From assembly GCA_035526765.1 (NCBI GenBank), contig DATLBS010000014.1, positions 15,612 to 79,611 on the forward strand: DNA of 64,000 nucleotides. Reading direction: 5' to 3'. The position numbers were made by a program, and so were the translations under genes. Shown here in pieces: positions 33,861 through 57,424 of this stretch. The DNA is from Thermoplasmatota archaeon (lineage in GTDB: Archaea; Thermoplasmatota; E2; JACPAO01; JAHFTW01). The notes under the pieces were generated by a model that worked only from the letters and a program-made list of their open reading frames with translations, did not search any database and was not told where the DNA came from. Position 1 is the stretch's first letter. Each line of letters opens with the position of its first letter.

Positions 33861-33959
33861 CGATGGGTCGCTGCCGTTTCTGTGCCTTCAGCGGATGACC
33901 AGAAGCGGGATCCTTCGCATCTGGGGAATCTGTGGAACGGCAGGGGCCAAAAACCAGCC

Positions 33960-36766: not shown

Positions 36767-39700
36767 CTACCGCTGGGACTCGTGCTCGCGGATGATCGCG
36801 TCGATGGCCTTGGGGTCGTAGCCGCGCGGCCTGGGAAGCGCCAACGACACGGGCCTGGCAGGGGCCTTCGCCTTGGCCGCCTTCGCCTTGGCGGGACGCG
36901 CCTTGGGGGGCGCATGCCCGGGCTTTCGCGCCTGCGCGGTCGCGGCCGGGGCTTCCCATGGCTCCGCGTCCGATTCCCCGGCCGCAACGCTGGTGTCCCG
37001 GGTTGCGGTCCCGAAGGCGTCCTGCGCGTCGGCGGCCCGCCCTGCCGGCTCCGAGGCCGGAGCGGACGCAGTCGCCTCACGTGCCTCGCGCGCCAACCGC
37101 TTCTCTTCCGCCAGGCGCATCTTCTCCGCCTGCTTCAGCTCGGCGGCGTGCCGCTTCGCAGCCTCCCGCTCCGCGGCCACCCTCTGCTTCTCGGCGGCGG
37201 CGCGTTCCCTCTCTTCGCGGGCACGGACCTGCGCGGCGGCCTTCTCCTCGGCGGCGCGCTGCTTTCCGGCCAACCGCTCCGCCAGAAGCCGCTCCTTCTC
37301 CGCCTGCCGGGCTGCCTTGGCGTCCCGCACGGGCGTCACGGCCTCCTGGAACTCGTGGATGGGGGCCTCGGCGGCCGCGGTCGCGGCAGGGGCGTCGTCC
37401 TCGCCGGCCGGCGCTGCGACCTCGCGGGCCGCCTTCTCCTGCTCGCGCCGCCGGCGCTCGTCCTCCTTGGCCTGCAGGGCCTGGGCCTTCGCCTGGGCAC
37501 GCGCCTCGATCTGGCGGGCCTTCTCGGCCTCCCGCTCGGCGGCCCCTCGCGCCTTCTCCTGCGCGGCGCGTTCCCGGGCCGCTTGGGCCTCCTGGCGCGC
37601 CCGCTCCTTGGCCTGCGCGACGCGCATCTTCTCGGTGGCCTTCTCCTCGGCCTCTCGGGCCCTGGCCGCCTCCTTCTCGGCGGCGGCGCGCTCCTTCTCC
37701 GCCTGCCGCTCGGCGGCCAAGCGCGCCTTCTCGGCCTCGGCCTGCTGCTGCGCACGGGCCTTCTCCTTCTCGGCCTTCAGCTTGGCAGCGGCTTCCGCCT
37801 TCTCCTCCCGTTCCCGCTGCTTGGCGATGCGCGCCTCCTCGCGCAGCCGCGCCTTCTCCTGCTTGGGATCGACCGGCCTGGGTTCGCGCTTCAGCAGCTT
37901 CCCCAATGAGAACCCGCCTTCCTTCGCGGGTCCCGCATCGGCCGTGGTCTCCTCCTTCTTGCCGCGCCTGCCTTTTGGGGCCTCGGCCAACTCAAGTGCA
38001 GGCTCCTCGGCCTGCCGTTTGGCGGCGAGTCTTGCCTCGCGGGCGGCGGCCTTCTCCTCCTCCTTGCGCTCGGCCGCGGCTTGCTTCTCCTCGGCGGCGC
38101 GTTGCTTGGCGACTTCCTTCGCACGGGCGGCCGCTTCCTTCTCGGCAGCCTTGCGGGCCTTCGCGTCCCCTTGCGGTGCCGACCCTTCGGTTGCGTCGGA
38201 GGTGCGCTTGAAACGGGAAAGGAACGACCCTGTGCGTTCCTCGGTGGCTGGCCCGGGGACCTCTTCGGCCTGTTTGCCTGCCCTGCCTTTCTTCGCGGGC
38301 AAGGACTCGATGGGTTCCGCCTCGCGGGGCTCCTCCTTGCGCTTGAGCCGGGACAAGAACGAGCCCTTGGGTTCCTCGTGGGCTGGTTCTACCGCCGGCG
38401 TGGGTTCGGCCTGTTTGCCTGCCGTGCCTTTCTTGGAGGGGGCTTCCTCGATGGCCGGCTCGGCGGTTGCCTCCTTGGGCTTCAGGCGTGACAGGAAGGA
38501 CCCCTTGGGCTCCCCTGGAGCGGGGTCCTGTTCGGCCGGGGGCTCCCGGGCTGCTGCCTTGCCCTTCTTCGCAGGCTTCTCCGGCGTGGCGGGCGCTTCC
38601 TCGGTCGCTTCTGCACCTACCTTGGCAGGCTTGCCGGCCTTCTTGGCGGCACGCTCGTCCTCGATGAGCTTCTGCTTCTCAACCTTCCGCAGCGCCGCTT
38701 CCTCGCGGGCTTTGCGCTGCGACTCCTTGCGGGCCTTGCGCTCCTCCTCCTTCTCGCGGCGCTGCTCCTCCCGCAGGGTGCGGCGGTCGGTGCCGGAGCC
38801 CAGGTCGACCTCGGGGGCAGCCTCGGTTGCGATGACCTCCTCCACGATGCGGAAGCCGGCGGACGTGGTGTACGCGCGCCCGGGCTGGTGGCCGAAGGCA
38901 TAGAGCCGCTCGGCGTCGGACTTCTCGTCCTCGGGCAGCTTCACGAAGGGGCTGCGGCCGTCGGCCAGGCGGGGGGCCTGGTGGCCCTTGCGCTCGTCCT
39001 CGGGCAGTTTGGCGAAGGCGCTGGACCCATCGGGCAGGCGGGGCTTCTCCCGCTCCAGGTGGTCCTCCGGCAGCTTGGCGAAGAGGCTGCTGCCATCGAT
39101 GAGGCGCGGCGGCGCCTTGGAGATCTCCTTCTTGGCCGGCTTGGAGGTGGCCTCCGCGAAGCCCTCCTTGCGGGCGACGATGGACTGCTCCCAGATGCCG
39201 CCCTCGCCGGTGGCCTGCGGGATCTTCTGCGCCACGGCCTCCGACCAGATGCCCTTCGGCTGGCTGCCCTCGCGCGCGGCGTCGCGGGCGCGGCGCTCCT
39301 CCTCTTTCTTGAGCCGGGCATCTTCCTTGGCCTTCTCCTTCTCTTCTTCGGAGCGGCGCTTGGCCTCCGCGGCCTCGGCCTTCGCCCTGGCCTTCAGGTC
39401 CGCCTTCGTCGGCTCGGCCGAGGCAGCAACGGCGGGAGCGTCCTTGGCGTCCTTCGCCGCCTGTTTCTCGGCCAGCATGCGTTCCTTCTCCGCCTTCCTG
39501 GCGGCCTTGGCATCCAGGGGGGCGTCGACCGCGGCAGGGGCGGGCGCAGGGGGTTCCTTGCCGGACTTCGCAGCCTTCTTGGCTTCCTTGGCGGCCAGTC
39601 TCTCGGCCTTGGCGCGTTCCTTCTCCGCCACCTTGGCCTGCTTCGCAGCCAGCTTCGCGGCCTTGGCTTGTTCCTTCTGGGCGAGCTTCTCGGCCTTGGC

Positions 39701-41461
39701 GGCCGCCTTGGGGTCCGGCACGTCGGCCGCCGCTGGCGTGGGCGGAGTGGGGGGCGCGAGGGGCGCGGCTGGCGCTTCCGTCTGCAGCTTCCCCTTGGTC
39801 CTGCGCAGTTCCTGCTGGACCTTCACGTCGGCGGTGCGGACGCTTCCACCCAGGATCGCCTGCGCGTCCGCGACCCACGCGGCCGCCGTCGCGTCGTCCT
39901 GGCCTGCCGCCTTGGCCACCAGGGCCAAGTCCGCCGCGGCCAGGGTCTGGAGCGTGAGGATCCCCTTCTTGCCAAGCTTCTTGGCCTGAGCCGGCCCGAT
40001 CCCCTTCACGTCGGTGACCGGGCGTTCGTGGGGCGTCGCGCTGCCGCTGGCCCCTTGGGACATGGTCGCGGCGGGTGCGGCAGCCGTTTGCGTGGCTTGC
40101 CTGATTTCCAGGGCCGACAGTTTGGCGCGGGCCATCGCCTCCTTCTCCTCCTGCCTGCGTTGCTGGGCGGCCTCTTTCTCGGCCTGCTTGGCGCGGCGTG
40201 CCTCCTCTTTTGCGGCGGCGGCCGCCTGGGCCTCCTGCTCGGCAAGCTGGCGTTTGGCCTCCTTCTCGGCCTTCGCGTTCGCCACGGCGATGCGCTTCTC
40301 TTCCTCGCGGGCCGCCTTGGCGGCGGCCTTCTCGGCAAGGGCGGCCTCTTTCTCACGCTGCTTCTGCGCCTTGGCCTCTGCCTTCAGGTCGGGCAGGGGG
40401 GCAGCGGGGGGTGCCTCAAGGACCGGTTGAGGTTCAGCGGTGGGCGGTGCGGCCTTGGCGGCGGCCTTCGCTGCGCGCTCGGCCTCCTTGGCCTGCTGCG
40501 CTGCCTGCTTCGCACGTGCGGCCTCCTCCGCGGCGGCCGCCTTGGCCAGCCGCTTCTGTTCCCTGGCATCCAGCGCGGGTGCGGCCGCGGCGGCGCCGGC
40601 TGGGGCCGGGGCATCGTCGCGGGCCAGGCCCAGCAACGACTTGCATTTTGGACAGGTGGCCTGCGTCGCGTCGGCGGCGACTGGGAACACGGTCCGGCAG
40701 TTGGCGCACTCGACGGTCTCGCCGCCGGGCGCCGCCTTGGCCGCCTTCGCGAGGCGCTTCTGCTCGGCCGCGCGCTCCCTGGCCGCCTTCTTCTCGGCGG
40801 CCGCGGCCTTGGCAGCGGCCTCCTTCCCGCGCCGCGCCGCCTCCTTCGCGGCGGCTGCCTGCGCCTTTGCGTCGTCCTTGGCCGGGGCGGCCGGGGCGCC
40901 AGCCTCGGACGGGGCGGGGGAGGCCGCGGCCTTGGCGGCGTCGGCGCCGCGCCTCGCTTCCTCCTTCTGGCGCTCGCGGGCCTCGGCGGCGGCCAGCTTG
41001 GCGGCGGCCTTCTCGGCCTTGGCGGCTTCCTTCGCCCGAGCCTTCCCTTCCGCAGCCTGCTTCTTGGCCTCCAGCCGGGCCCTGGCGGCTGCGGCCTTGT
41101 CGTCGGGATCTGCCTGGCTGGCTTCGGCCGCTGCCCTGGGCTTGCGGCGGAACAGTCCCGCCTTCTCGCGGGGGGGCTCGTGCAGCTCGACCTTCGGCGC
41201 GGCGGGCTCCTTGCGGCGGAAGCGGTGCAGGAACCCGCGCTCGGCCTCCTTCACGGCTTCCTTGGCAAGCTGCTTGTCGTCGAGGTCGGCCTTCTCGACG
41301 AACTGGATCTGCTCCTCCTCGTCCTGGTCGACCGCGGGCTCGGGCAGTCCCTGGACCTTCCGCAGGGCCCGGATCCCCACGTCGTCCGCCTTGGGGCGTG
41401 GGGTCCTGCCAGGCTTGCGGGAGGTCTTGGCGGGCTTGGACGGCTGGGTCTTGCGGGCCAC
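36767..41461 (-). CDS. Giant (roughly 1565 aa) Ala/Lys/Glu/Arg-rich (single-alpha-helix-like ER/K) protein with Zn ribbon, HhH motif and internal tandem peptide repeats
   Basis: Putative GTG start at 41461, with a GGAG 10 nt upstream and a CTTTATCTAT TATA-like box 45 nt upstream. Zn ribbon CANCRTVFPV...CPKCKS. HhH VTDVKGIGPAQAKKLGKKGILTLQTLAAADL. 3x DGSS.FAKLPED and 3x KGSFLSRLK.K repeats. Long AKEAAKAEKAA..-type low-complexity helices. Overlapping plus-strand ORFs are antisense shadows. Confidence 0.7.
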   Translation of the reverse strand: MARKTQPSKPAKTSRKPGRTPRPKADDVGIRALRKVQGLPEPAVDQDEEEQIQFVEKADLDDKQLAKEAVKEAERGFLHRFRRKEPAAPKVELHEPPREKAGLFRRKPRAAAEASQADPDDKAAAARARLEAKKQAAEGKARAKEAAKAEKAAAKLAAAEARERQKEEARRGADAAKAAASPAPSEAGAPAAPAKDDAKAQAAAAKEAARRGKEAAAKAAAAEKKAARERAAEQKRLAKAAKAAPGGETVECANCRTVFPVAADATQATCPKCKSLLGLARDDAPAPAGAAAAAPALDAREQKRLAKAAAAEEAARAKQAAQQAKEAERAAKAAAKAAPPTAEPQPVLEAPPAAPLPDLKAEAKAQKQREKEAALAEKAAAKAAREEEKRIAVANAKAEKEAKRQLAEQEAQAAAAAKEEARRAKQAEKEAAQQRRQEEKEAMARAKLSALEIRQATQTAAAPAATMSQGASGSATPHERPVTDVKGIGPAQAKKLGKKGILTLQTLAAADLALVAKAAGQDDATAAAWVADAQAILGGSVRTADVKVQQELRRTKGKLQTEAPAAPLAPPTPPTPAAADVPDPKAAAKAEKLAQKEQAKAAKLAAKQAKVAEKERAKAERLAAKEAKKAAKSGKEPPAPAPAAVDAPLDAKAARKAEKERMLAEKQAAKDAKDAPAVAASAEPTKADLKARAKAEAAEAKRRSEEEKEKAKEDARLKKEEERRARDAAREGSQPKGIWSEAVAQKIPQATGEGGIWEQSIVARKEGFAEATSKPAKKEISKAPPRLIDGSSLFAKLPEDHLEREKPRLPDGSSAFAKLPEDERKGHQAPRLADGRSPFVKLPEDEKSDAERLYAFGHQPGRAYTTSAGFRIVEEVIATEAAPEVDLGSGTDRRTLREEQRREKEEERKARKESQRKAREEAALRKVEKQKLIEDERAAKKAGKPAKVGAEATEEAPATPEKPAKKGKAAAREPPAEQDPAPGEPKGSFLSRLKPKEATAEPAIEEAPSKKGTAGKQAEPTPAVEPAHEEPKGSFLSRLKRKEEPREAEPIESLPAKKGRAGKQAEEVPGPATEERTGSFLSRFKRTSDATEGSAPQGDAKARKAAEKEAAARAKEVAKQRAAEEKQAAAERKEEEKAAAREARLAAKRQAEEPALELAEAPKGRRGKKEETTADAGPAKEGGFSLGKLLKREPRPVDPKQEKARLREEARIAKQREREEKAEAAAKLKAEKEKARAQQQAEAEKARLAAERQAEKERAAAEKEAARAREAEEKATEKMRVAQAKERARQEAQAARERAAQEKARGAAEREAEKARQIEARAQAKAQALQAKEDERRRREQEKAAREVAAPAGEDDAPAATAAAEAPIHEFQEAVTPVRDAKAARQAEKERLLAERLAGKQRAAEEKAAAQVRAREERERAAAEKQRVAAEREAAKRHAAELKQAEKMRLAEEKRLAREAREATASAPASEPAGRAADAQDAFGTATRDTSVAAGESDAEPWEAPAATAQARKPGHAPPKARPAKAKAAKAKAPARPVSLALPRPRGYDPKAIDAIIREHESQR

Positions 41462-41505
41462 GTTGATTCGTCCACTCCAGGAGGCACGCGGCACACCCGA
41501 GGGAC

Positions 41506-41515
41506 ATAGATAAAG
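41506..41515 (-). promoter_or_regulatory. TATA-like box (CTTTATCTAT on minus strand) for the giant gene, in a divergent intergenic region shared with polB
   Basis: It is the only AT-rich octamer in a GC-rich spacer, and its position relative to the GTG start is appropriate. Confidence 0.3.
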
Positions 41516-41732
41516 GATATCTGGAAGCCTGGAAGCCGGGACGGTCGGATGGCCGCACTGCGCAGGCGCGCCCGTTTGGGGTAGCCACGGAGCGCACGGA
41601 AAACACGGAGGGCTTCGCTGTCGTGCGCAGGCCACGCTCCGTGGACTCCGTTCCCTCCGTGGCTTGCCGTGACCATGGAACATCCTGGCCGTTGGCCCAA
41701 ACCCCTAAGCCCGTCGGCCAACTCGCCGCGGC

Positions 41733-44772: not shown

Positions 44773-44970
44773 GAACCACAGATTCCACGGATTTCACAGA
44801 CCCATGTTCTCAGGCCGTCATGCGCTCCGCGTTCAATTCTGGACCGATTCCAGTCCAACACCCCTGTGACGGCGGGGGCGTCGAACACCAGAAGCGAGCC
44901 GTGCTGGCCGTGCCACGCGCCGCCGTCGGAGGCGCCGGTAAACCAGAGCCTGTACCAACACGCGATGCCC
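44773..44970. repeat. Composite intergenic repeat 3' of polB: CACAGAT-array module, then GCGCTCCGCGTTCAATTCTGGA module, then GTGCTGGCCGTGCCACGCG module
   Basis: Shares modules with 21791, 63800-63915, 8914 and 33613-33860. Confidence 0.55.
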
Positions 44971-45061
44971 AGACTGCGTGCCGCAACACGTTGTCGGTGA
45001 CCCAGATGGCTTTGGCGTCGCATCCCGGCAACCTCAAGTGCAAGCACCCACGCTTCCCCGC

Positions 45062-45403
45062 ATGCGCTGGTCCTGGCCCTCGTGGCTTGCCATCATCTTC
45101 GGCGCCCTGCTGGCCGTGGCTGCCTTCTGGCTCACCAACGACCAGCACGATGTCGCCTACCTCACGGGCCTCCTCATCCCGGGGGCTATCCTCATGGGTG
45201 CTGGCCTCCACGCCCTGCAGGCCAGCTACGATTCCTGGTGCGGCGACGACTGCTACGGGTACGGTGGCGGTTCGTGCGGGTGCGACCACTGCGGCGACTG
45301 CTCGGGCGGCGACTGTTGCGGCCACTGCGGCTGCAGCAACATGCGCACGGACGGGCAGGGGCACGACGGCCACGGCCACGACCACGGCGAGCACAGCCAC
45401 TGA
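45062..45403 (+). CDS. Small membrane protein with Cys/Gly-rich and His/Asp-rich (metal-binding-like) C-terminal tail
   Basis: MRWSWPSWLAIIFGALLAVAAFWL... two TM helices. CGDDCYGYGGGSCGCDHCGDCSGGDCCGHCGC....GQGHDGHGHDHGEHSH. Confidence 0.5.
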   Translation: MRWSWPSWLAIIFGALLAVAAFWLTNDQHDVAYLTGLLIPGAILMGAGLHALQASYDSWCGDDCYGYGGGSCGCDHCGDCSGGDCCGHCGCSNMRTDGQGHDGHGHDHGEHSH

Positions 45404-45600
45404 TGCGCATCCTCTGGGCCGTCCTGGCCGCCGTCGTGGTCGTGGCGATGAGCGTCTACCTGTCCTCCGCGTACCGCAACCCCATGTACGCCGTCCTGGG
45501 CCTCGCCGCTGGACTCGTCGTGGTCATCGGGGGCCTTGCCAGCATGATGGTCAAGCGCCGGTCGGGGCCGCCCCCCTCATCCCCGCCCCCGCCCACCTGA
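45403..45600 (+). CDS. Small membrane protein (65 aa), TGATG-coupled to the previous gene
   Basis: MRILWAVLAAVVVVAMSVYLSSAYRNPMYAVLGLAAGLVVVIGGLASMM. Confidence 0.4.
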   Translation: MRILWAVLAAVVVVAMSVYLSSAYRNPMYAVLGLAAGLVVVIGGLASMMVKRRSGPPPSSPPPPT

Positions 45601-45680
45601 CCGTCGAGGCCTTCAGCGATGCGGGAAGCCGCAAAGCCAAAGCACGGCCGCAGGCCTCGCCCCGCGTGAAGCATTGGCTG

Positions 45681-46139
45681 ATGAAGTCCGAGCCCGAGTC
45701 GTACTCCATCGACGACCTGGCGCGCGACGGCACGACCGACTGGACCGGCGTCCGGAACTTCAAGGCCCGCAACTGGATGAAGGAGATGCAGGTCGGCGAC
45801 AAGGTCCTCTTCTACCACAGCAACGCCGATCCTCCCGGCGCCGCCGGTGTGGCCGAGGTCTGCGCAGTGGCCCACGCCGACCGCACCCAGTACGATGCCA
45901 GATCGGACTACTTCGAGCCCAAGGCCACCCCGGAGAAGCCGTACTGGTACTGCCCGGACATCAGGTTCGTGGCGAAGTTCACCCGCTTCGTCCCTCTGCA
46001 GGAATTGCGCGACAGCGATGCGCTGAACGGCATGCTGCTCACGTCCGGCAAGGCGTCACGCCTTTCGGTGCAGCCGGTGGACAAGAAGCACTTCGATGCG
46101 ATCGTCAAGATGGGCAGCAAGGTTTCGCCCCCCACGTAA
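45681..46139 (+). CDS. EVE (PUA-like) domain protein
   Basis: HWLMKSEPESYSIDDL..WTGVRNFKARNWMKEMQVGDKVLFYHSN.. is the typical EVE/Thy1-like fold signature. Confidence 0.7.
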   Translation: MKSEPESYSIDDLARDGTTDWTGVRNFKARNWMKEMQVGDKVLFYHSNADPPGAAGVAEVCAVAHADRTQYDARSDYFEPKATPEKPYWYCPDIRFVAKFTRFVPLQELRDSDALNGMLLTSGKASRLSVQPVDKKHFDAIVKMGSKVSPPT

Positions 46140-46340
46140 CCACAGATGGCACAGATGCCCAAGATGCCCGCCCAGCCCCCTGAGCAGGGCTTGGTGGTGC
46201 TCCAAATGCCCTTCAGTGGATTGGTCTGGGCGGTCGCGTTCGCGCAGCGAACCCAGCGCGCGCAGCGCAAGGGGACGAAGCCGGCCGCGCGGTGAGCGCG
46301 GCCACGATGCTGCGACCGCCCCGTCCTCCGAGGGGTACGA
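46136..46340. repeat. Left copy of an approximately 200-bp direct repeat (CACAGAT module + structured W element) bounding the lower-GC island
   Basis: About 75% identical to 60127-60335 over its length. Contains the identical 28-mer GCCGGCCGCGCGGTGAGCGCGGCCACG. Confidence 0.6.
46228..46321. ncRNA. Candidate structured RNA 'W' (copy A): closing stem GGGCGGTCGC/GCGACCGCCC, hairpin GTTCGC/GCGAAC, hairpin GGCCGCGC-GGTGA-GCGCGGCC
   Basis: Two stems show compensatory changes relative to copy B (60224-60316). No match to tRNA or 5S recognised. Confidence 0.45.
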
Positions 46341-46391
46341 GGCCCGGAGGTAGAGGACCCTCTTTGGTGGTAATCTCACCTCCCCTGTTGG

Positions 46392-46907
46392 ATGCGGTTC
46401 TTCGGAGTTGATCCCATGAAACCCCAAAAACACCCCCGAACAGCAGACATCGCCCGACTTGTCGCGCGAGCGTCCGATGCGAACCGGCCCCAATTGGAAG
46501 CCCACATCGAATGGAACCGGGGCCAGAACCAAATGAGCGAGAACGGCGTGTACAGTTTTGCGCGCCCCATCGTCCACGCGGACTCGATCCTGGAAGGCAA
46601 GCCCTTCCACACGACAAAAACCCAGGACTGGCTCAAGGTGGTCTCCGTGTTCCGGACCATCTACAGCCCCCACAGCCTCCGGATCAGGGTCGTGAATCTG
46701 CGAAAACATGTGCGGTACTGCTTCGACGTGGACGACCTGGAAAAAGCCGAGGAGTTGGGCAAGAAAGAGGGCCGCGCCATGGAGAAGGCCCTTTGGGTCA
46801 AGCGCGAGAAGCCTCAGGTCGTGGGCCAAGTCATCCTGGAAACGGACGTGGATGCCATGCTGGCGGCAATCGCGGCGCGCAACAGCCTAGGGGGCAAAAC
46901 CAGATGA
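46392..46907 (+). CDS. Hypothetical protein (island cargo)
   Basis: ORF in the lower-GC region. No motifs recognised. Confidence 0.4.
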   Translation: MRFFGVDPMKPQKHPRTADIARLVARASDANRPQLEAHIEWNRGQNQMSENGVYSFARPIVHADSILEGKPFHTTKTQDWLKVVSVFRTIYSPHSLRIRVVNLRKHVRYCFDVDDLEKAEELGKKEGRAMEKALWVKREKPQVVGQVILETDVDAMLAAIAARNSLGGKTR

Positions 46908-47297
46908 TTTCTGCACGTTCTTGTTCAAATTTCCGGGTGCGTAACGATTACACAATTGCCTGTTCCAGTGTATTGCCACTGGGGACTCGTCGGAACCCAT
47001 ACGGCCGCCCCAGTCTTGTGGGCATCATTGTATGGACGGACCAAATTGAAGGTGAGCGGGTAAGAGTCAGTGCCGTCCGGGGACATCGCGCATGGACCAA
47101 AAGAAAGGCAAGCTGGGGAATCCTCCGGACAAATGGCCACTTCGCGGATTTCGACCGGGGGCGGGGGTAGACCTGGCAAGGGTTGAGCGTTGGCCGGAGA
47201 CATGCAAAACAGCATGGCGAGAAGGCAACATAGAATTCCTAGAGGGGTTCCGTTTGGCATAGAGTTCAGTTTCCTTGGGATGTTTTTTTGGAGATTG

Positions 47298-48152
47298 TCA
47301 CGGCAAATCCATGATGACTTTGAGCGTTGCAATGGTGGTCTCAGTTGTTTGGGATCCTGCTCCGTAGTCAGCCACCGCCCCTACCATCCCGCCGTGTATC
47401 GTTAGTGGCCCGATTGTTCCTACGAACGTCAGAATCTCGTAGAATGTTTCGTTGAGCCAAGCATGTCGGGTGCCGTCGCTTTGGTGCCATCGGCCGCCGG
47501 TTATGGCGTTCCCCTGCGGAGGGCTTGTCTCTCCTGCCCCAATGAAATCATACAGGACGTCATCTTGGGTTGCCACGTGGTATTGCAGAGTTTGCCCAGT
47601 CACGGCGCCTTCCACGGTCCCCAGCCGAGCATGGAAGCCTGCTTTTTGGAACAAGGAGACCATTGATTGGTTTGCAGCAATCAATTCCAGGAGATAGAAG
47701 TCGCCTCGATTCGGGTCATGAGATTGCACGTCGGCCGGAACTTTTGCGGGCGCCGTCAAGGTTGCGTACCTAATGTCGTGAAGCACTTCCAGGCTGTCGA
47801 CCACCCCGGTGTCACAAAGGAAAATGCTGAAGTGGGCGAGTTCTAGATTCCCAGCCACGGGATCTGGCCGGTATCCATCTGGAAGCTGGGCCTTCATCTT
47901 GTCCGCGTCCGCGGCCAGGCTAGTGTAGTAGGCTTGGCAGCCGTTCATTTCCAGCTTCTTCGGGGATGCAGCAAGAACAAGGTTGCAAGCCGTGGAATTC
48001 TGCTTGCAAGAGTCAGGCGTCGATGTGGTGTCAAGCGTGGCTGTCGTCGAGGCGGTGCCGGAAGAGGTTGTGATTGGATTGTTGGTTCGTGAGCCGCAAC
48101 CTGCTAAGGAAAGCATGAGGACCAGGATGCAAGGGATCCAAGCAGTGCGCAT
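47298..48152 (-). CDS. Lipoprotein, hypothetical (island cargo)
   Basis: MRTAWIPCILVLMLSLAGCGS lipobox. Thr/Ser-rich linker. Abuts the upstream regulator gene. Confidence 0.55.
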   Translation of the reverse strand: MRTAWIPCILVLMLSLAGCGSRTNNPITTSSGTASTTATLDTTSTPDSCKQNSTACNLVLAASPKKLEMNGCQAYYTSLAADADKMKAQLPDGYRPDPVAGNLELAHFSIFLCDTGVVDSLEVLHDIRYATLTAPAKVPADVQSHDPNRGDFYLLELIAANQSMVSLFQKAGFHARLGTVEGAVTGQTLQYHVATQDDVLYDFIGAGETSPPQGNAITGGRWHQSDGTRHAWLNETFYEILTFVGTIGPLTIHGGMVGAVADYGAGSQTTETTIATLKVIMDLP

Positions 48153-48153
48153 G

Positions 48154-49839
48154 TTATGCATCTCCAGGATGTGTGGTCCTACTTTGCGTTTCCGGGGTTC
48201 GAATCCAGGGTAGCGCAATGGAAGCCGGATTGCTCGGGCCAGCCAATCGGGGGTGCAGCGCCCAGAGCGTGGTGCGGCCGGTGCGCGAACGCAGCAAGAC
48301 TCCATCGGCTTCCATCCGGCGCATGTGGTACGAGAAAAGGCTAGTTTTCGGCACGGGACTCCCGTGCAAGCCCAATGCCTTGCGAATCGAATCCGCGTCC
48401 ATCGGCGTGGCGGCTTGGCCTAGGATTTCGATGATGCTCTTGCGGATGGGGTGGCGCGAATCGGCCAGGGCATTCTGCACAATCCTATCAGATGCCCCCA
48501 GGGGGTAAGCGGGCTCGAAGTGTTGGCGGTGGCCGTGCGAATACACTTTGATGAGATCCGCGTCCGCAAGGATCTGGGCATGGAAATTGAGTGAAGAACG
48601 ACGCAAGCCCACGGTCTGCATTAGCTGCGGGGCGCCAATTCCGGGAACTTCCCGGATTAGTTTCAGCAGCTGGACGCGCGTGGGGTGTTCCAGGGGTTGG
48701 GCACGAGAATTTCTTAGCAGGAAAAACCGGATTCCCTTCGCAACGCTCGACGAGGAGGCAACAAGCCATGCAAGTAGACTGAAGCCGGCAAGGGCTCCTA
48801 GGGCCGGCAGCCATTCCCGAGTGCCAAAGACTGCCACCCCATCAATTCCAAGGTAGCTCGCTTCGCCATCCAATTTCCACTGGCTGCTGGGCGCCCCATA
48901 CCTGCCTTGGAACTTGAAGTCGCCAATGGTTTGAACAAGACCCAATTCTTTGTTCACGAATCGGGCGTCGACGCTCGTGCTCCCAACGTCAGCAAAGGCG
49001 ATGTCGCCGTCGTAATGACCCTCAAGGGATTCAAGAAGAGGATTCCAAAGACCGCCGCGGTCTTGTTGAAGATGAATCGCCGTTGAGGGGGCCGTGATGA
49101 GCACGGCAATACGGTCGTAGTATCCCGTCGTGGAATAGCCCAAGGGGTCGCTGAACTCTGTGCCCTGGTGGGGATAGATTCCGGTGTGGATAACGCGATC
49201 CCCACCCAGGGCAACGGATGACCCATACGCAAGAATCGCGAATTCCCCAGTGTATGACCGGGTATCGGCTTGTTCGTGATTCCAGCGGCCCGCTTGCTCG
49301 TAAGGGGCATAGTGGCGAGGCGCTTCATTGGTGCCTTGCAGTGTAAATTCATAGCGGTGATCTGGAATCTCAATCGACTGCTTCCCGGTCTCATCAAGCT
49401 GCAATCGGATGGCTTGATGCTCAGTCGGGGGGAGGAAACGAACGGCCGAAATGATTTGCTCGTTCCGGATCTCAACGGTACCAGTAAAAGCAAAGTCTTC
49501 GTTCTTCTGTTCCGGAGGCTCAGGGGCGTACGCAGCCCCTTGGCCCACGGGGCTCTCTCTGCTTGTTCTGGCCTTGGCCAGAGGATCCGAAAGAATTTGG
49601 ATGTGGGCGCCCGTAACGGAAAAATTGGCTGTGATGTTTCCTGAGTGCCAGAAGGATTCGAAGGCGATGCCGGCCAAGTTCGCGAGGCCCTGGTACCGGC
49701 CGTTCAAAGCAAGCGTGCCTGAGGAAACGATGTCGCCTGAAACATGGGTCGTATCAGGAGGCTTGGCGATGGCGGCCGGCAAGAAAGCCAGGATGCAGCA
49801 CGCCGCCGCAGCGACAATCTGAACCCTGCTTCCGGACAT
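48154..49839 (-). CDS. Membrane-tethered one-component regulator: signal peptide, extracellular domain, single TM, cytoplasmic tandem winged-helix domains
   Basis: Signal peptide MSGSRVQIVAAAACCILAFLPAAIA. TM helix LPALGALAGFSLLAWLVASS. C-terminal LIREVPGIGAPQLMQTVGLRRSSLNFHAQILADADLI plus a second wHTH. The cytoplasmic part is homologous to 28522-29070. Confidence 0.65.
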   Translation of the reverse strand: MSGSRVQIVAAAACCILAFLPAAIAKPPDTTHVSGDIVSSGTLALNGRYQGLANLAGIAFESFWHSGNITANFSVTGAHIQILSDPLAKARTSRESPVGQGAAYAPEPPEQKNEDFAFTGTVEIRNEQIISAVRFLPPTEHQAIRLQLDETGKQSIEIPDHRYEFTLQGTNEAPRHYAPYEQAGRWNHEQADTRSYTGEFAILAYGSSVALGGDRVIHTGIYPHQGTEFSDPLGYSTTGYYDRIAVLITAPSTAIHLQQDRGGLWNPLLESLEGHYDGDIAFADVGSTSVDARFVNKELGLVQTIGDFKFQGRYGAPSSQWKLDGEASYLGIDGVAVFGTREWLPALGALAGFSLLAWLVASSSSVAKGIRFFLLRNSRAQPLEHPTRVQLLKLIREVPGIGAPQLMQTVGLRRSSLNFHAQILADADLIKVYSHGHRQHFEPAYPLGASDRIVQNALADSRHPIRKSIIEILGQAATPMDADSIRKALGLHGSPVPKTSLFSYHMRRMEADGVLLRSRTGRTTLWALHPRLAGPSNPASIALPWIRTPETQSRTTHPGDA

Positions 49840-50001
49840 CGCGGCAACCACTCGCGTGTCCCTATAAATCTCTTGGCGCAGCGTTTGCTGGATTGTTCCA
49901 ATCAACGTTACACAGTTGATGATATACCCTGACTCCATCGCCGCGTTTCATATGGTTACGTCCGCGCCCTTCGCTTTGGTTCCCCTTCCACAGGAGGAAC
50001 G

Positions 50002-50613
50002 ATGAACGTCTGGTGGATGCTCTGCCTGGCGGGTGCCACCTGCGGGGCGGTGTTCGTCGCCTCGCATCTTCTTGGTCCCTATTTTCGGTGGTGGCGAGAG
50101 CAACCCCGCGAAACCCCCTTGGAACGCCGCCAACGCCGGCTCGCGAACGCCGTCGAGAACTCCTTCGGAGCAGCCGCGGACGGGCACCCCTGGGATGCCC
50201 GTTGGTGGGGTGCCAAGGCATGCCGCTTGGACCCGCGCGCACCATCGGCCATGCATTCGCTTGGACACGCCTGGATGCTCTGCAACCGACCCGTCCTGGC
50301 GTTGAAGCACCTTGAGCGCGCCGTCGTCTTGTTGGACGAGGGTGTGTGCGCGGATGACCCAATGGAGCTCACGGCGGAGATTGCCGTCGATGCCAGCCGA
50401 TGCTGCGCCATGCTCCGTCTCGATTGCACCGACCCTGTGGAGAAAGAACAGTGGGGGGAGGGCGTGCTGCGCTGGGCCCGCGTTGCCATCGAATCGAAAC
50501 CTGACGTGGCCCAGGAACTCCGTTCCAACCACTACTTGCGGGATCTAGAATCCGCGATCCACGTCCTGTTGACCAGCCTTGACTCCAAGGCGCAACCCCT
50601 GGGGATCCGCTAA
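50002..50613 (+). CDS. N-terminally anchored helical-repeat (TPR-like) protein
   Basis: MNVWWMLCLAGATCGAVFVASHLL TM anchor. Helical repeats follow. Confidence 0.4.
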   Translation: MNVWWMLCLAGATCGAVFVASHLLGPYFRWWREQPRETPLERRQRRLANAVENSFGAAADGHPWDARWWGAKACRLDPRAPSAMHSLGHAWMLCNRPVLALKHLERAVVLLDEGVCADDPMELTAEIAVDASRCCAMLRLDCTDPVEKEQWGEGVLRWARVAIESKPDVAQELRSNHYLRDLESAIHVLLTSLDSKAQPLGIR

Positions 50614-50875
50614 TGCTTGCGCCTCTGCTTTTCCACGCGTCACCTCAAAACGGGAAACCCTCGGGTTCGGGGCTGCCGCCGAGCAAACGCGTGGAATGTG
50701 TGTCATGTTGCTCGCGTGGCAGCCCCGTTTTCCTCTCTAATCCCCAACTTGCAACTGGCAATCCCATGCCAAGAGCCCACCGTCAATTTGAATCTATGAA
50801 ACCGGCACCCGCATCGTCATCCCCATCTCGCCGGGTCCTCTTCCCCATCCCAAAACATCAGGAGATTGACCACCC

Positions 50876-53800
50876 TTGACATTGAATTTTGCCGCTTCGA
50901 AGAAATCCCCGTTGCCTTTCTTGGTGGCGGCCCTCCTGGTCGCTGGGGCCTTCGCGCACGGGGTGGGTGCCCAATCGGATCCGCCCATCAATTGCCAAGC
51001 ACTCGTGATCGGCCCGATTCCCGACGTCGGGCCAATCCCTTTGCCGCTAGTCCCTGGCGGGGGGATTCCCAAGCTGGGCCCGTGCACCGCTTTCCAACTT
51101 TTCAACACCTTCGTGCAAAAGGACCAGAACCGTGACGGCGCCGGCGACGATTGGCAGAAATCCTACGACCTCGACGTCCTGGGCGGCGACACGGATCACG
51201 ACGGCTTGACGGACCTGAACGAGTACAAGTGGCTCTCCAATCCCATCGTCGCAGACAGCGATGCGGATGGTTGGCAGGATGGGCCCGAAGCTTCTTACTG
51301 GAGCAAGATGGCCAGATCGGAAGCCAATCCCCCACCCGTTGCAGGGTACGCCGTTGCCGGACCCGGATCCCAACTCGATACCGACGGCGACCATGTGCCC
51401 AACATCATGGACGCAGATTCCGACAACGATGGACTGCTGGATGGAGCGGAGAGCAATATCTACCACACGGACCCCGCGGTGGCCGACACGGACCAGGACG
51501 GCATCCTGGACGGAGGAGTCACACCCCTTGGTGCCCCTCACATCAATGGAGAAGTCCATGACTACGGCACCAATCCAGTCCAAGGCGATTCCGACGGGGA
51601 CGGCTTGGAGGATGCCCAAGAAATCCAGTACTGGCAAAGCCGCGGCAACCTGACCACCGGTGCCAACCGCGTGGACACGGACCATGACGGACTATGGAAC
51701 GCCGTCGACCTGGACTCCGACAACGACGGATTGAGCGACGGCGAAGAAGTCACAACCTATCACAGCGACCCAACGTTGAGCGACACGGATGGCGACTCGA
51801 TGCCCGACGCCTGGGAGGCCCACCACAGCTTGGACCCAGCAAGTGCGGCGGATGCAAACCTCGACGCCGACGGTGATGAACTCGCGAATGTGGCCGAGTA
51901 CCAAGCCGACACGGATCCCCATGACATGGACACCGACAACGACCTCCTGCTGGACGGCGAGGAAGTCAACACGTACCACACCAATCCCTTGAACGGGGAT
52001 TCGGATTCGGACGGGATGCCGGATCGTTTCGAGATCCAGCACGGCCTGCTCCCTCTGGACGCAACGGATGCCGTAGCCGACCCGGATGGGGACTCCTTCG
52101 ACCAAGGCGCGGACGGCAGCATCGAACAAGCCTGGCCCAACCTCGCTGAATACCAGTACGGCCGCCCCATCGGATACTCAGAGGCCGCCTCCGGCCCGTG
52201 GTTGGCTGGCACGGATCCCCACAAGGCTGACACCGACGGCGACGGCGCTCCCGACGGTTACGAGGCATACTATGGAACGAACCCTGTCCTTCCTGCGGAT
52301 GGCAGCACCGATGAGGACAAGGATGGCCTCAACTTCACGCAAGAAGTACGCCACGGCACCGACCCAGGCGACCCCGACACCGATGGCGACGGGTTGTGCG
52401 ATGGCGGACGCGCCGCCAATTGCTTCTTCCCGGGGCTGGGCACCACAGGCTTCCAGCCGGGAGAATCCGATTACGGCTCCGTGCCTTGGATGACGGATTC
52501 GGATGGCGATGGCATCCCCGATGGCCAGGAAGCCCAGAAATGGGACCCGAGCGCCACCGGCCGCGCCCAAGACCTCGACCACGACTCCTTGGGCGGGATC
52601 ATCGACTCTGACAGTGACGGCGACGGGCTGGCGGATGGCTCCGAGATTGTATATCATGCCGACATGGCTGTGTCCGATTCCGACCAGGACGGCCTCAATG
52701 ACGGCCCCGAGGTCAACACTTGGGCCACTAGTCCCACTAGCACGGATAGCGACCAGGACGGCCTCTTGGATGGAGCGGAAGCCATGGCCCACCACACGGA
52801 TCCCGCTGTGGCGGATTCGGATGGGGATGGGGTTGGCGACGGCCAAGAAGTCAACAGGTTGGGAACCGACCCGTTGAGCGCGGATACCGATCAGGATCAT
52901 CTGCCGGATGGTTGGGAAGCCGCGGAAGGCACGCAGCCTCGCGTTTCAGATGCGGGCCAGGACATCGACATCGATGGCCTCTCCAACGCCTATGAATTCA
53001 TCATTGGCACCCACCCAAACTCGAAGGATTCCGATGGAGACGGTATGCCTGACACTTACGAGGACACCTACCTTCTGGACCCCGCACACGACACCGCCGC
53101 CGGTGACGCAGATGGGGACGGGCTTGCCAACCTGGACGAGTACGCCCAAGGCACGAATCCGTTGGTGGTCGACAGCGATGGCGACGGCATCGACGACGGT
53201 CCCGAAATCCACTTGCACCAAACGAATCCATTGATGAATGACACCGACAACGATGGCCTGGGGGACGGCGTCGAGTTGGCGGCGTGGAACATGCTTGGCT
53301 CCTCGGCATGGAACACCAACTATGATGGCGACACGTTTGCCAACAACCTCCTCGACTCGGACTCCGATGGGGACCAGCTCTCTGATGGGTACGAGTTCGT
53401 CACCAGCCACACCGACCCCAAGGACACGGATTCCGATGGCGACGGCTTGACCGACTACCAAGAGGTCTTCGTGTACCAGGGCCAATACGACCCCAACAAG
53501 GCCGACACCGATGGCGACGGCCAAAGTGACGGCGTCGAGGTCGCCTTGGCGGACACCAATGGGGATGCCGACAAGGACGGCATCAAGAACGGCGACGAGG
53601 GCTCGGTCTACGGCACCGATCCAACCGTCGCGGATACGGATTGCGATGGCATCAACGACGGCCCCGAGCTTGCCTATTGGGGAGCAACGTGGAGTATGGG
53701 CGGGAACCGGTTGAGGCAAGGCGACGTCGATGGAGACACGTTGAAGGACGGCCTCGAGATTGCGTCCATGGATGCCCCTGGGGGCACCTTCACGCGCACC

Positions 53801-55744
53801 TTGCCCGACAAGGCGGACAGCGACAACGATCTTTTGGGGGACGCCGTGGAGGCCCAGAACAATGCCCGCGTCACCTGCGGCACCAGCAGCCAACGATTGG
53901 GCCCCGTCAACCCTCTGGGAGGCTTGAACGTGGTCGAGGTCGCCAACAACGCTGCAGCACTTGCCACGTTGGGTCCGGGGGTCTATTATCGGGGGCCGGA
54001 TGGCAATGTGTACGCCAAGGACCTCAACGGGCTCTTTGTCCAGGGCGGCTACGGCATCCACCTCTACCTGAACTTGCCCGGCAAGTCCGCGAACCCGTTG
54101 AGTCAACTCAGCGTCAAGCCAAGCTCAGCCACGTATGCGTCCATGTCGCCGGGCACGAACGGCAAACGGACCGACCCCTTGAAGCCGGACACGGATGGCG
54201 ATGGATTGCTGGATGGCGTCGAGATCACGGCGTCGTTGAATCCGTTTTCTGGGCCTCCATTGGATCCAACGTTGTGCGATACGGACCATGATGGGCTTGG
54301 TGATGGCTTGGAGTTGGGCCTGACTTTGGGGGTGCCTGTCCAGAATGGAGCCGACCCCTCCTGCAATCAACGTGACATGGATCCCGCCACGAAGACCGAC
54401 CCGAACAACCCTGACACGGATGGGGATGGCGCAACGGATGGTCGTCCTGCGCAGGCCAGGGGTCAGGCGTTCGAGGACGGGAACGGCAATGGCCGCTTGG
54501 ATGGTGCCACGAGTGGATATTGTGGCATCCCGGGCGCCGAATCGGATCCCCAGGACGCCGACACTGACGATGATGGGATCAGTGATGGCGCTGAAATCCT
54601 AGGGAGCTTGGGTGGCATCCAAACCAGCCCGTATTGCTTCGATTTGGATGGGGATGGCCTCTCGGATGGTTTGGAGCAGGGCCTGGGGCCTGGCCAATTC
54701 GTGCCGGCCACGACTAGTGGTGGGGTTCTTGTGCAAGGCACCAATCCCGCTCACACCGTGTCCATGGGAAGCTTCGCGTGGCCGACTTGGCAAGCCTGGT
54801 CGGGAACCACCGACTCGGCAAGCCGAAAAATCACGACGCTTGTGGATGATGGCGATTCTGACAATGATGGCGTCATCGATGGCCTAGAGGATTTGAACCA
54901 TAACGGCAAGTTCGGAACCACGGATAGCGCAGAATTGGATGCCAAGAGTCCTGACACGGATGGCGACGGTTTGGCGGATGGCTTGGAGTTGATGATTTGG
55001 GGTTCGACCAGCAATCCCAATTTCACGCCTTACACGTTCCCGGATGCCGTGGCCCAGTGGCACGCGGTGTCCTTGCTGGATGTGAAGCAGAAGCTGCAAT
55101 GGAATCCCGCCAACAAACTCCAAACGGATCCCCGCAACGCGAATACGGACGGCACGGACCTCATTCCGGACGGCCTGGACGTGAATCCCTTGGGGGACGC
55201 CAAGATGACGTTGACATTCGGCTTCTTCCAGATGTTGGAGAAACCCGATGCCGACTGTCCGTGGTGCGAAGACGGTTGGGCGCCTGACGTAAAAATCAGC
55301 TTGTTGGCCACTCTTCCATCGAATGTCGGTTTCACTGCAAACACCATTGAATTGGATCTTCCTCGTGCCAAAGAAGGATTCGACTTAGGTGGTTGGCTTA
55401 ACGCGCATGCGAACTTTGTGACGGATACGGGTTCGCCATCAGGCGTGATGGGATTGGTTTGGACAGGGGGCCGAGTCTTGATGGATCTCTATGACTCTGT
55501 TGATCAATTCCCAACGACATCCGCCTGCAAAGACGCCGTCTGTTTGAGCCTGCATTTCCGGGAAATTGATGACGCACCCTTCGAACCGGATTCGAATGAC
55601 AATGATGTTGATTTTGAACCCTGCAGACGGCCGAACATACTATGGGCAAAACAGCATCCAAGACGAGCCCATTGGCTTTGCCGCGAGCCCCTGTGCCAGC
55701 GGCTTGCCAAGAATCGAGATGCGTGGTGTCGGCGATCCGAATGA
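50876..55744 (+). CDS. Giant (1622+ aa) secreted protein with dozens of thrombospondin-type-3-like Ca-binding repeats (DxDxDGxxDxxE); probable frameshift near 55620, with the reading frame continuing to 55889
   Basis: Signal peptide (TTG start) MTLNFAASKKSPLPFLVAALLVAGAFAHG. Repeats DTDHDGLTDLNE, DSDADGWQDGPE, DSDNDGLLDGAE, DTDQDGILDG, DSDGDGLEDAQE and so on throughout. The last 40 codons of this frame are Arg/Cys/Trp-rich junk, while the +1 frame (55566-55889) continues with protein-like sequence. Confidence 0.75.
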   Translation: MTLNFAASKKSPLPFLVAALLVAGAFAHGVGAQSDPPINCQALVIGPIPDVGPIPLPLVPGGGIPKLGPCTAFQLFNTFVQKDQNRDGAGDDWQKSYDLDVLGGDTDHDGLTDLNEYKWLSNPIVADSDADGWQDGPEASYWSKMARSEANPPPVAGYAVAGPGSQLDTDGDHVPNIMDADSDNDGLLDGAESNIYHTDPAVADTDQDGILDGGVTPLGAPHINGEVHDYGTNPVQGDSDGDGLEDAQEIQYWQSRGNLTTGANRVDTDHDGLWNAVDLDSDNDGLSDGEEVTTYHSDPTLSDTDGDSMPDAWEAHHSLDPASAADANLDADGDELANVAEYQADTDPHDMDTDNDLLLDGEEVNTYHTNPLNGDSDSDGMPDRFEIQHGLLPLDATDAVADPDGDSFDQGADGSIEQAWPNLAEYQYGRPIGYSEAASGPWLAGTDPHKADTDGDGAPDGYEAYYGTNPVLPADGSTDEDKDGLNFTQEVRHGTDPGDPDTDGDGLCDGGRAANCFFPGLGTTGFQPGESDYGSVPWMTDSDGDGIPDGQEAQKWDPSATGRAQDLDHDSLGGIIDSDSDGDGLADGSEIVYHADMAVSDSDQDGLNDGPEVNTWATSPTSTDSDQDGLLDGAEAMAHHTDPAVADSDGDGVGDGQEVNRLGTDPLSADTDQDHLPDGWEAAEGTQPRVSDAGQDIDIDGLSNAYEFIIGTHPNSKDSDGDGMPDTYEDTYLLDPAHDTAAGDADGDGLANLDEYAQGTNPLVVDSDGDGIDDGPEIHLHQTNPLMNDTDNDGLGDGVELAAWNMLGSSAWNTNYDGDTFANNLLDSDSDGDQLSDGYEFVTSHTDPKDTDSDGDGLTDYQEVFVYQGQYDPNKADTDGDGQSDGVEVALADTNGDADKDGIKNGDEGSVYGTDPTVADTDCDGINDGPELAYWGATWSMGGNRLRQGDVDGDTLKDGLEIASMDAPGGTFTRTLPDKADSDNDLLGDAVEAQNNARVTCGTSSQRLGPVNPLGGLNVVEVANNAAALATLGPGVYYRGPDGNVYAKDLNGLFVQGGYGIHLYLNLPGKSANPLSQLSVKPSSATYASMSPGTNGKRTDPLKPDTDGDGLLDGVEITASLNPFSGPPLDPTLCDTDHDGLGDGLELGLTLGVPVQNGADPSCNQRDMDPATKTDPNNPDTDGDGATDGRPAQARGQAFEDGNGNGRLDGATSGYCGIPGAESDPQDADTDDDGISDGAEILGSLGGIQTSPYCFDLDGDGLSDGLEQGLGPGQFVPATTSGGVLVQGTNPAHTVSMGSFAWPTWQAWSGTTDSASRKITTLVDDGDSDNDGVIDGLEDLNHNGKFGTTDSAELDAKSPDTDGDGLADGLELMIWGSTSNPNFTPYTFPDAVAQWHAVSLLDVKQKLQWNPANKLQTDPRNANTDGTDLIPDGLDVNPLGDAKMTLTFGFFQMLEKPDADCPWCEDGWAPDVKISLLATLPSNVGFTANTIELDLPRAKEGFDLGGWLNAHANFVTDTGSPSGVMGLVWTGGRVLMDLYDSVDQFPTTSACKDAVCLSLHFREIDDAPFEPDSNDNDVDFEPCRRPNILWAKQHPRRAHWLCREPLCQRLAKNRDAWCRRSE

Positions 55745-55889
55745 TGAGGACGGGCTACTGACCCTCACTCCGGATATCACAGTATTCGGGAATTTCCTGG
55801 ACAATGCCCGCGTCCACTCCGCCAACCCAAGCGGCGTTGTCATGCCCCCCACAACTAGCGTGCCGCGACAACTTGCTGGTGGCTGCTAA
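55566..55889 (+). other. Probable authentic C-terminal continuation of the giant repeat protein in the +1 frame (frameshift, pseudogene or sequencing indel), carrying the conserved LPRIEMRGVGDPNDEDGLLTLTPDITVFGNFLDNARVH module
   Basis: From about 55625 the sequence reads ADGRTYYGQNSIQDEPIGFAASPCASGLPRIEMRGVGDPNDEDGLLTLTPDITVFGNFLDNARVHSANPSG.., which matches the repeat-protein style (DPNDEDG). Confidence 0.5.
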
Positions 55890-56894: not shown

Positions 56895-57424
56895 GCCCCG
56901 TTGGATTTACCGATGAACGAGTTTTGCTGACGTTGACGCCAAACATCGCGATCTTCGGGAACTTCCTTACGCAAGCGCGCGAGCACGGCATGCTACTCAA
57001 TTTTCTATCCGCACAATCGGGGTTGCCAAAAAAGGAATTGCGGGGGCCGATGAGACCGCGTCCTCGTTTCTACGGCCTGATTCTTTGTTTCGGCGTCCTT
57101 CTTGCGTTTGCCATTGTGTTTGGGAACACCTTTCTCCTTGCCATGAACCCATCTTTCGGCGGGGGTCACGTGCGGCACGCTATCTTGGTCATGGACCGGG
57201 GTGCCCTTGATAACCAGACGGCAAGAGCCCTACTGCCCCCAGCAGACTGGAACGCTTCCGGCAAAGTACAGACCAAACTGCTTGAGGTCATCTTCGCGGA
57301 CCCCACACAGATCGTCCTGGGTGATGTACCAGACCTGCCCAGGCAGGTTCTTGAGATCCCACGAACGGAAATCACATCCATCATCTGGATGGACGAGTCC
57401 GCCTTGTTCAAGACTGGCACGTAA
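56819..57424 (+). CDS. Small single-TM protein whose N-terminus carries the second copy of the conserved module (FPRIVSPVGFTDERVLLTLTPNIAIFGNFLTQAREH)
   Basis: Module conserved with synonymous DNA differences relative to 55704-55817, implying the frame is coding. TM FYGLILCFGVLLAFAIVFGNTFLLAM. The start is uncertain and the gene overlaps the 3' end of the upstream gene. Confidence 0.4.
   Translation: MDDNSCLQTPIWVACPLAEPFPRIVSPVGFTDERVLLTLTPNIAIFGNFLTQAREHGMLLNFLSAQSGLPKKELRGPMRPRPRFYGLILCFGVLLAFAIVFGNTFLLAMNPSFGGGHVRHAILVMDRGALDNQTARALLPPADWNASGKVQTKLLEVIFADPTQIVLGDVPDLPRQVLEIPRTEITSIIWMDESALFKTGT

Follow-up and report, generated by a model that had tools for sequence, protein, structure and literature searches.

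Much work has been done on dispersed structured repeats of bacteria, hardly any on those of archaea, and none has been described for uncultured, very GC-rich soil Thermoplasmatota. The BOX elements of Streptococcus pneumoniae and the ERIC/IRU elements of enterobacteria are modular or long (100-200 nt) imperfect intergenic palindromes. Archaeal MITEs include the SM types of Sulfolobus and PATE of Haloquadratum from IS200/IS605-type elements. A census of prokaryotic MITEs, those of archaea included, is available (PMC11602168). At the level of structural motifs, hairpins of the type GCGNAGC or CCGAAGG, known as mini-hairpin DNA, are extraordinarily stable in DNA, considerably less so in RNA, and are used at single-stranded DNA (ssDNA) priming signals and N4 promoters (PMC13037366). 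The repeat analyzed here occurs in two copies, A and B, in the window, that is, the whole 64-kb stretch of Thermoplasmatota DNA under study. It is best classed as a new archaeal family of intergenic repeats that are dispersed, modular and structured, called the cloverleaf repeat in the following; no description of such a family was found in the literature on archaeal REPs and MITEs or Thermoplasmatota repeats.

The window encodes the archaeal ribosomal proteins L21e and S3Ae as well as Rpb4, Spt5, FtsZ and RadA. Its PolB has a counterpart of 100% identity in the TPA MAG Candidatus Thermoplasmatota archaeon, and an exact look-up of three window proteins returned no record. Copy A is located 3' of an EVE-domain gene (about 45681-46139) and 5' of an ORF starting at 46392 or 46417, both on the plus strand. 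Copy B lies between two minus-strand genes, encoding an ABC-2 permease (stop codon at 60392-60394) and a lipoprotein (58400-60061(-), product beginning VRALVLAGLLVLGLLAGC). Based on the strands of these neighboring genes, A is in sense and B in antisense orientation to its neighbors. Genes at 46392-58037 show a GC3 of 0.62-0.83 compared with 0.92-0.97 for native window genes, and a syntenic relative, L072, has two unrelated genes in their place; this stretch is thus a variable region with A at its left edge. Encoded in the low-GC3 region (46392-58300) are a 1622-aa protein with a wealth of bacterial TSP3 repeats (50876-55744) and an HTH_20 protein (48154-49938, minus strand).

Three further observations concern the gene content of the window. 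The mechanically called 439-aa ORF at 44820-46139 is probably not a single gene, as relatives carry separate small genes there, and the match to the 147-aa EVE-domain protein is confined to about 45681-46139. A 1638-aa ORF at 36767-41683(-) consists of many degenerate repeats (about 33-60 nt), is Ala/Lys/Glu-rich by codon pattern, is without a Pfam family and is kept beside radA and polB in relatives (1363 aa in L072, 1632 aa in L074). PolB homologs P0017, P0027, P0075 and P0091 include several proteins of about 1400-1490 aa with LAGLIDADG or intein-type Pfam domains, from which it follows that PolB inteins come and go in this clade; the window PolB (1007 aa) is without an intein.

The features of copies A and B and of the modules directly upstream of them are listed below, with hairpins numbered P1 to P4 within the cloverleaf and m2 and m3 downstream of it.

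46136-46170, plus strand: CACAGAT module upstream of A (GTAACCACAGATGGCACAGATGCCCAAGATGCCCG), member of a separate repeat family
46221-46227, plus strand: 7-nt leader of A, TTGGTCT (family consensus YYGGCCT), from copy alignments
46228-46321, plus strand: cloverleaf core of A, a four-way junction, from the covariance model (99.4 bits) and the fold
46228-46237 with 46312-46321, plus strand: P1 of A, GGGCGGTCGC with GCGACCGCCC, 10 bp
46238-46252, plus strand: P2 (hairpin 1) of A, GTTCGC-GCA-GCGAAC
about 46253-46272, plus strand: P3 of A, the small middle hairpin
46283-46303, plus strand: P4 (hairpin 3) of A, GGCCGCGC-GGTGA-GCGCGGCC
46322-46362, plus strand: 3' linker of A (CGTCCTCCGAGGGG) and decayed m2 remnant, from comparison with the L034 and L016 units
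60130-60165, plus strand: CACAGAT module upstream of B, with an orthologous module in the cloverleaf-free L072
60217-60223, plus strand: 7-nt leader of B, TTGGCCT
60224-60316, plus strand: cloverleaf core of B, from the covariance model (96.5 bits) and the fold
60224-60232 with 60308-60316, plus strand: P1 of B, GGGCGGTCC with GGACCGCCC, 9 bp
60233-60247, plus strand: P2 (hairpin 1) of B, GCGCAC-GAA-GTGCGC
60248-60270, plus strand: P3 region of B, the small middle hairpin
60278-60298, plus strand: P4 (hairpin 3) of B, identical to that of A
60329-60347, plus strand: m2 hairpin of B, GCAGGGGC-GGA-GCCCCTGC, a module common to L050, L006, L069, L070 and L071
60364-60390, plus strand: m3 hairpin of B, CGAACGGC-CGCAA-GCCGTTCG (short m3)

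The preliminary description of this DNA had proposed that A and B share one fold, that hairpin 1 pairs in both despite its different sequence and that the third hairpin is the same in both. All of this was borne out: a closing stem and three hairpins are present in either copy, both versions of hairpin 1 are self-complementary, and hairpin 3 is found unchanged at A and B and nowhere else in the 64-kb window. Each fold has a z-score of -3.4 relative to dinucleotide shuffles, with none of 200 shuffles being equally stable, and the reverse strands fold about equally well using RNA or DNA parameters. The similarity between the copies is longer than first noted, extending over about 46136-46362 and 60130-60390. 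Its additional upstream part is due to the separate CACAGAT module while its downstream part consists of further hairpin modules belonging to the same cloverleaf repeat unit. In copy B, m3 ends 1-2 nt from the stop codon of the ABC-2 permease; from copy A, m3 is absent, and the low-GC3 variable region begins just past 46362.

Using the 21-mer of hairpin 3 as a query, one genome per GTDB species was scanned. This yielded 66 loci, of which 62 are GC-rich hairpins or terminators of unrelated taxa that match by chance. The other four, all located in the MAG Thermoplasmatota archaeon S2_bin.14 (JBHELM01), carry the element in full, with GGGCGGTC on its upstream and GACCGCCC on its downstream side. 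A covariance model built on six copies (A, B and the four JBHELM01 loci) gives 99 bits for A (E 7e-20) and 97 bits for B (E 3e-19), detects no further copy in the window and finds three diverged copies, subfamily sub2, in the JBHELM01 loci. Each sub2 copy is arranged head-to-head with one copy of subfamily sub1, at three of the four MAG loci, with 49-59 nt between the P1 stems. A metagenome scan returned five loci, three of them genuine copies from soil samples (L069, L070, L071). The family, a GC-rich one of soil Thermoplasmatota, comprises 12 copies in total, namely A and B and ten others, contributed by a single Thermoplasmatota MAG and by three contigs from soil metagenomes. No family member was found in scans of viral contigs. 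A protein-database search with a translated open frame of the repeat, meant to detect any spurious ORFs annotated across copies, gave no match at E up to 1.

Every copy folds on its own into a four-way junction with a core of 94-120 nt. P1 closes the junction with 9-12 bp, P2 is a short hairpin, and P3 and P4 are long arms, P3 with the tip C-GA-NN-GNA-NN-GA-G and P4 with the loop G-N-U-G-A. Covariation was assessed on an alignment of the 12 copies, which derive from fragmentary assemblies and at least five contig sets, using a hand-written structure of 38 pairs (413 cells). Standard pairs occupy 95.4% of the 413 cells, and both sides have changed in 17 of the 38 pairs. None of 500 column shuffles reaches the observed values, and sliding the 3' partners by 1-3 columns results in 30-47% pairing. 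The P3a/P3b pairs lie outside the model used to make the alignment and are therefore independent of fitting. RNAalifold was additionally run on a MAFFT alignment of the homologous copies that had not been fitted to the structure; P1 and P4 are recovered with covariation.

The compensatory changes can be followed stem by stem. In P1, GGGCGGUCGC/GCGACCGCCC is replaced by GGGUGGCCGC/GCGGCCACCC, and in P4, GGCCGCGC/GCGCGGCC is replaced by GGCGGGCC/GGCCCGCC, GACCGCGC/GCGCGGUC or CCCGCGC/GCGCGGG. The central pair of P3a is C-G, G-C or U-A depending on the copy, and P2 varies between GUUCGC, GCGCAC, GCUCGC and GCC; in four MAG copies, P2 consists of GCGAGC with GCGAGC, paired through tandem G-A. As differences between sub1 and sub2 are inherited, the independent compensatory events are estimated at roughly a dozen, not 36. 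Covariation between A and B had been taken at the outset to imply selection on an RNA structure rather than neutral decay. The constraint on a single-strand fold holds across the 12 copies and speaks against neutral decay; the identification of the folded molecule as RNA does not follow: covariation alone gives no proof that it is RNA, and finding it in a repeat pair is not enough to diagnose an RNA gene.

The sole tRNA identified by ARAGORN in the window is a tRNA-Arg at 10928-11002, with none at A or B, and Rfam 15, applied to the whole window at gathering threshold, returned tRNA only. Around A and B, with E up to 10, the best Rfam matches score 10-16 bits compared with thresholds of 57-153, and no match to the tRNA clan was obtained. 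A tRNA identity was rejected given stems of 6-12 bp instead of 7/4/5/5 and negative ARAGORN and Rfam (RF00005) results at both copies. The curated Rfam families, including ribozymes, SRP, RNase P and archaeal sRNAs, were rejected as well, nothing coming near the gathering threshold. Rfam explains neither A nor B, in agreement with the initial exclusion of tRNA, 5S and box C/D from the letters alone.

The cloverleaf is part of a full unit of about 180-240 nt consisting of a 7-nt leader, the cloverleaf itself, a short CNUCC linker, hairpin m2 and hairpin m3. Two types of m2 occur, GGGGCCC-GGA-GGGCCCC and GCAGGGGGC-GGA-GCCCCCUGC, and the family m3 hairpin is GGCGAAACGGG...CCCGUUUCGCC. All 12 copies are intergenic. 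Units span the distance from a stop codon (or gene start) to the next promoter, with the m3 end always directed toward the neighboring gene and the 5' side of P1 toward the intergenic middle. Of the 12 units, seven run antisense to the gene beside them, beginning 1-5 nt past a stop codon (B, L034 sub2, L050 sub2, L006, L070, L071) or a tRNA 3' end (L069). The other five (A, L034 sub1, L050 sub1 and both L016 units) are in sense orientation and face a gene start, the L016 pair being located between divergently transcribed transporter genes. On the soil contig Ga0137411_1312762, the antisense L069 unit (about 790-870) ends a few nt from the 3' end of a tRNA gene whose anticodon loop, TTCGTAA, identifies it as probably tRNA-Thr. 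No consistent AT-rich box is present 25-35 nt upstream of the units, while nearby real promoters show TTAAAT, TTATAT or ACATTTT, and no oligo-T tract is found downstream. Head-to-head pairs terminate in a palindromic m3 on both sides, and single units also occur. The central spacers are not conserved among the three pairs and do not support movement of a pair as one piece.

Comparison with close relatives indicates that units are gained and lost at orthologous intergenic sites. L072 is syntenic with the window over RadA, the giant protein, PolB, two small genes, EVE, two genes, lipoprotein(-) and ABC-2(-), with a PolB 83% identical to that of the window and proteins flanking the site 80-89% identical. 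The covariance model did not find the element over L072, L073, L074 and L075 (66 kb), and the orthologous A and B sites of L072 are without the cloverleaf. At its B site, the promoter-proximal box and an intact CACGGAT module are kept, with cloverleaf, m2 and m3 all missing. L230 encodes an ortholog, 97% identical, of the permease beside the L050 pair, and the covariance model did not find the element over L230-L233 (42 kb). Flanking DNA of L050 and L230 is 95-98% identical up to the stop codon TGA and again from GCCGTTAWATCGCG (GCCGTTA(A/T)ATCGCG). Between these points, L050 carries a 456-nt double unit (2119-2574) and L230 a 96-nt CACGGAT module. Two kinds of modules occupying the same slot in near-identical genomes are expected of mobile or cassette-like DNA, not of a conserved RNA gene. 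At this precisely mapped site, no target-site duplication or classical terminal inverted repeat was seen.

Two other repeat families occur in the same DNA. CACRGAT elements are palindromic modules of about 60-90 nt whose arms consist of three roughly 9-nt periodic repeats (AACCACGGATTNCACGGA...TCCGTGNAATCCGTGGTT). They usually begin 10-20 nt past a stop codon, are present in relatives without the cloverleaf (L072, L230) and could represent a protein-binding array or a 3'-end element. The third family consists of repeats of about 70-140 nt with a core that is 80% or more identical (CATCGCGTGTTGGTACAGGCTCCAGTCCAACCGCC..CTCCGACGGCGGCGCGTGGCACGGCCAGCACGG...). Two of its copies terminate in a GGGGCGCGC-GNA-GCGCGCCC hairpin, and Rfam gave no match at gathering threshold. 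In addition to the modules at 46136-46170 and 60130-60165, copies are located as follows.

21792-21879, window: complete inverted pair of CACRGAT modules, 21792(+)/21863(-)
44774-44806, window: CACRGAT module
11065-11082, window: weaker CACRGAT module
33919-33936, window, minus strand: weaker CACRGAT module
1277-1334 and 15276-15335, L072: CACRGAT modules
1327-1388, L230: CACRGAT module
788-850, L006: CACRGAT module
12600-12740, window, plus strand: third repeat family
33730-33870, window, minus strand: third repeat family
44900-44970, window, minus strand: third repeat family

Unpaired bases of the cloverleaf repeat are 78% purine on one strand compared with 51% in stems, and tandem G-A mismatches are conserved. 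Both features point to one particular strand being the one that matters. G-U accounts for 2 of the 413 cells, so stems are almost purely Watson-Crick, and a wobble-pair strand test (2 G-U versus 5 A-C/C-A) has too few cells to discriminate. C-GNA-G triloops are found 18 times on perfect stems of at least 3 bp and cap P2, the P3 tip, m2 and most m3 hairpins in the variants GCGAAGC, GCGCAGC, GCGGAGC and CCGAAGG. Nearest-neighbor folding separates neither the strands nor DNA from RNA. The near-absence of G-U, the C-GNA-G caps and an orientation independent of neighboring transcription would point toward ssDNA as the folded form, although the near-absence of G-U could simply reflect extreme GC pressure (native GC3 0.92-0.97). 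RNA is kept open by the expectation that units would be read through from upstream genes at most loci and would then form very stable structures.

Taken as a whole, A and B are probably copies of a non-autonomous mobile or dispersed palindromic repeat of the REP/BIME/MITE kind, with the folded single strand as the selected entity. An alternative suggested by their arrangement is that they are attL/attR duplicates resulting from integration of the intervening low-GC segment. The two copies are repeated directly at a distance of 14 kb and share an identical core of 26 nt, GC3 drops to the values given above between 46.4 and 58.0 kb, and the segment is swapped for other genes in L072, all of which would fit an integration event. 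However, the foreign segment ends near 58.3 kb, about 2 kb short of B, and the lipoprotein gene between island and B is native (GC3 0.92; 80% identical to its L072 ortholog). Overall identity between A and B is only about 77%, Pfam detects no integrase on the ORFs between 46.4 and 58.4 kb, which a very divergent enzyme could escape, and the element is also present at unrelated loci of other genomes. The position of B beyond the border and behind a native gene, the Pfam result and the loci elsewhere together make an att origin exceedingly improbable. The early suggestion of an RNA target of an integrase also loses its footing here, given the same Pfam result and the distance of B from the island border.

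Two further alternatives assign the function to RNA. Selection could act in cis on an element of 3'-UTRs or inter-cistronic regions, serving as terminator, exonuclease barrier or operon insulator, that has spread by duplication or recombination, an explanation we consider unlikely while granting it more weight than any other rival. The host is very GC-rich with few oligo-T terminators, the seven antisense units begin directly past a stop codon or tRNA 3' end, the L050 double unit is bounded by a stop codon on one side and the TATA-like box of the following gene on the other, and an unrelated module, CACRGAT, takes the same post-stop position; very stable folds and strong covariation fit such a role as well. 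Yet transcripts of stop-abutting units would contain the complement, with pyrimidine loops instead of the conserved purine and GNA loops, since these units are antisense. Read-through is not expected for the L016 pair between divergent genes, and close relatives are without the unit at the same sites. Far less credible still is that each copy represents an independently transcribed small RNA gene of a trans-acting sRNA family; a novel small RNA had been one possibility raised in the preliminary description. A fold kept with covariation, conserved purine-rich loops and junctions (GAAGAG, GNUGA), the conserved 7-nt leader and head-to-head pairs that could share a central bidirectional promoter would all suit such genes. 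Against this, Rfam is empty at E up to 10, no consistent promoter-like box lies upstream and no oligo-T tract downstream, and the unit runs on into two more hairpins butting against coding sequence. The repeat is moreover multi-copy, found in either orientation and absent at orthologous sites, so that its position is not conserved between relatives; a dedicated small RNA is not borne out.

Under the preferred explanation of a dispersed or mobile palindromic repeat, we hypothesize that units resemble REP/BIME, BOX or MITE elements in behavior, as mobile or cassette-like DNA that is non-autonomous, with selection acting on the fold of one single strand with purine-rich loops and C-GNA-G caps. 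The folded form would most likely be ssDNA, recognized during mobilization or replication. Read-through of neighboring genes would yield RNA of very high stability (-60 to -75 kcal/mol per cloverleaf), which could block 3' exonucleases or RNA polymerase as a secondary, exapted role. In the repeat loci examined, neither a transposase nor a RAYT-like or other candidate partner gene was detected. A bolder version, which we regard as improbable, is that the cloverleaf unit, as a four-way junction with mini-hairpin DNA caps, constitutes the recognition scaffold of a new archaeal mobilization system acting on folded ssDNA through an HUH/Y1-type or primase-like enzyme, or else a self-propagating structured RNA element. 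In either case, if true, non-autonomous mobile elements would gain a new class, distinct from REP or MITE look-alikes. The family shows clearly how compensatory change can preserve a multi-stem fold in a repeat that is gained and lost between near-identical genomes. It can serve as a marker for strain typing and for assembly problems in Thermoplasmatota MAGs, and its strand-specific C-GNA-G caps offer a handle on element movement in archaea and on a possible role at transcript 3' ends where oligo-T terminators are scarce.

Cloverleaf units share several features with the REP/BIME/REPIN elements of proteobacteria: both are GC-rich intergenic palindromes that are multi-copy, located past stop codons and strain-variable. 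Inverted doublets, found here at three of the four MAG loci, and mosaic arrays with other modules are also characteristic of REP/BIME, for which single-strand folding is likewise thought to matter. Unlike the cloverleaf unit with its four-way junction of 94-120 nt plus two hairpins, REPs are single hairpins of 20-40 nt, and only m2 and m3 are REP-sized parts of the unit. In addition, the cloverleaf is without the GTAG/CGTC tag, no RAYT partner is known and the host is an archaeon. BOX and ERIC elements resemble the family in that stems are kept by compensatory changes and presence varies between strains; however, they are without sequence similarity to the cloverleaf, form one long hairpin instead of a four-way junction and are bacterial.

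MITEs are, like the cloverleaf repeat, non-coding, 100-500 nt in length, intergenic, multi-copy and polymorphic between relatives, the family showing 12 copies and empty orthologous sites in L072 and L230, and a head-to-head pair resembles an element with long-armed inverted repeats. In contrast to MITEs, no target-site duplication was seen for the cloverleaf at the L050/L230 junctions, an autonomous insertion sequence to match it is not known, arms also occur singly and spacers within pairs are not conserved. The mini-hairpin DNA motif is matched exactly by the caps at P2, the P3 tip, m2 and most m3, but it defines a type of structure, not a family of elements, and its known uses are single ssDNA sites (phage G4, ssiA priming and N4 promoters). 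The family behaves like REP/BIME, BOX or MITE elements but fully matches the defining features of none of these systems: the cloverleaf unit is too large and branched for a REP, and it shows neither a target-site duplication at the precisely mapped site nor a known autonomous partner as in a MITE.
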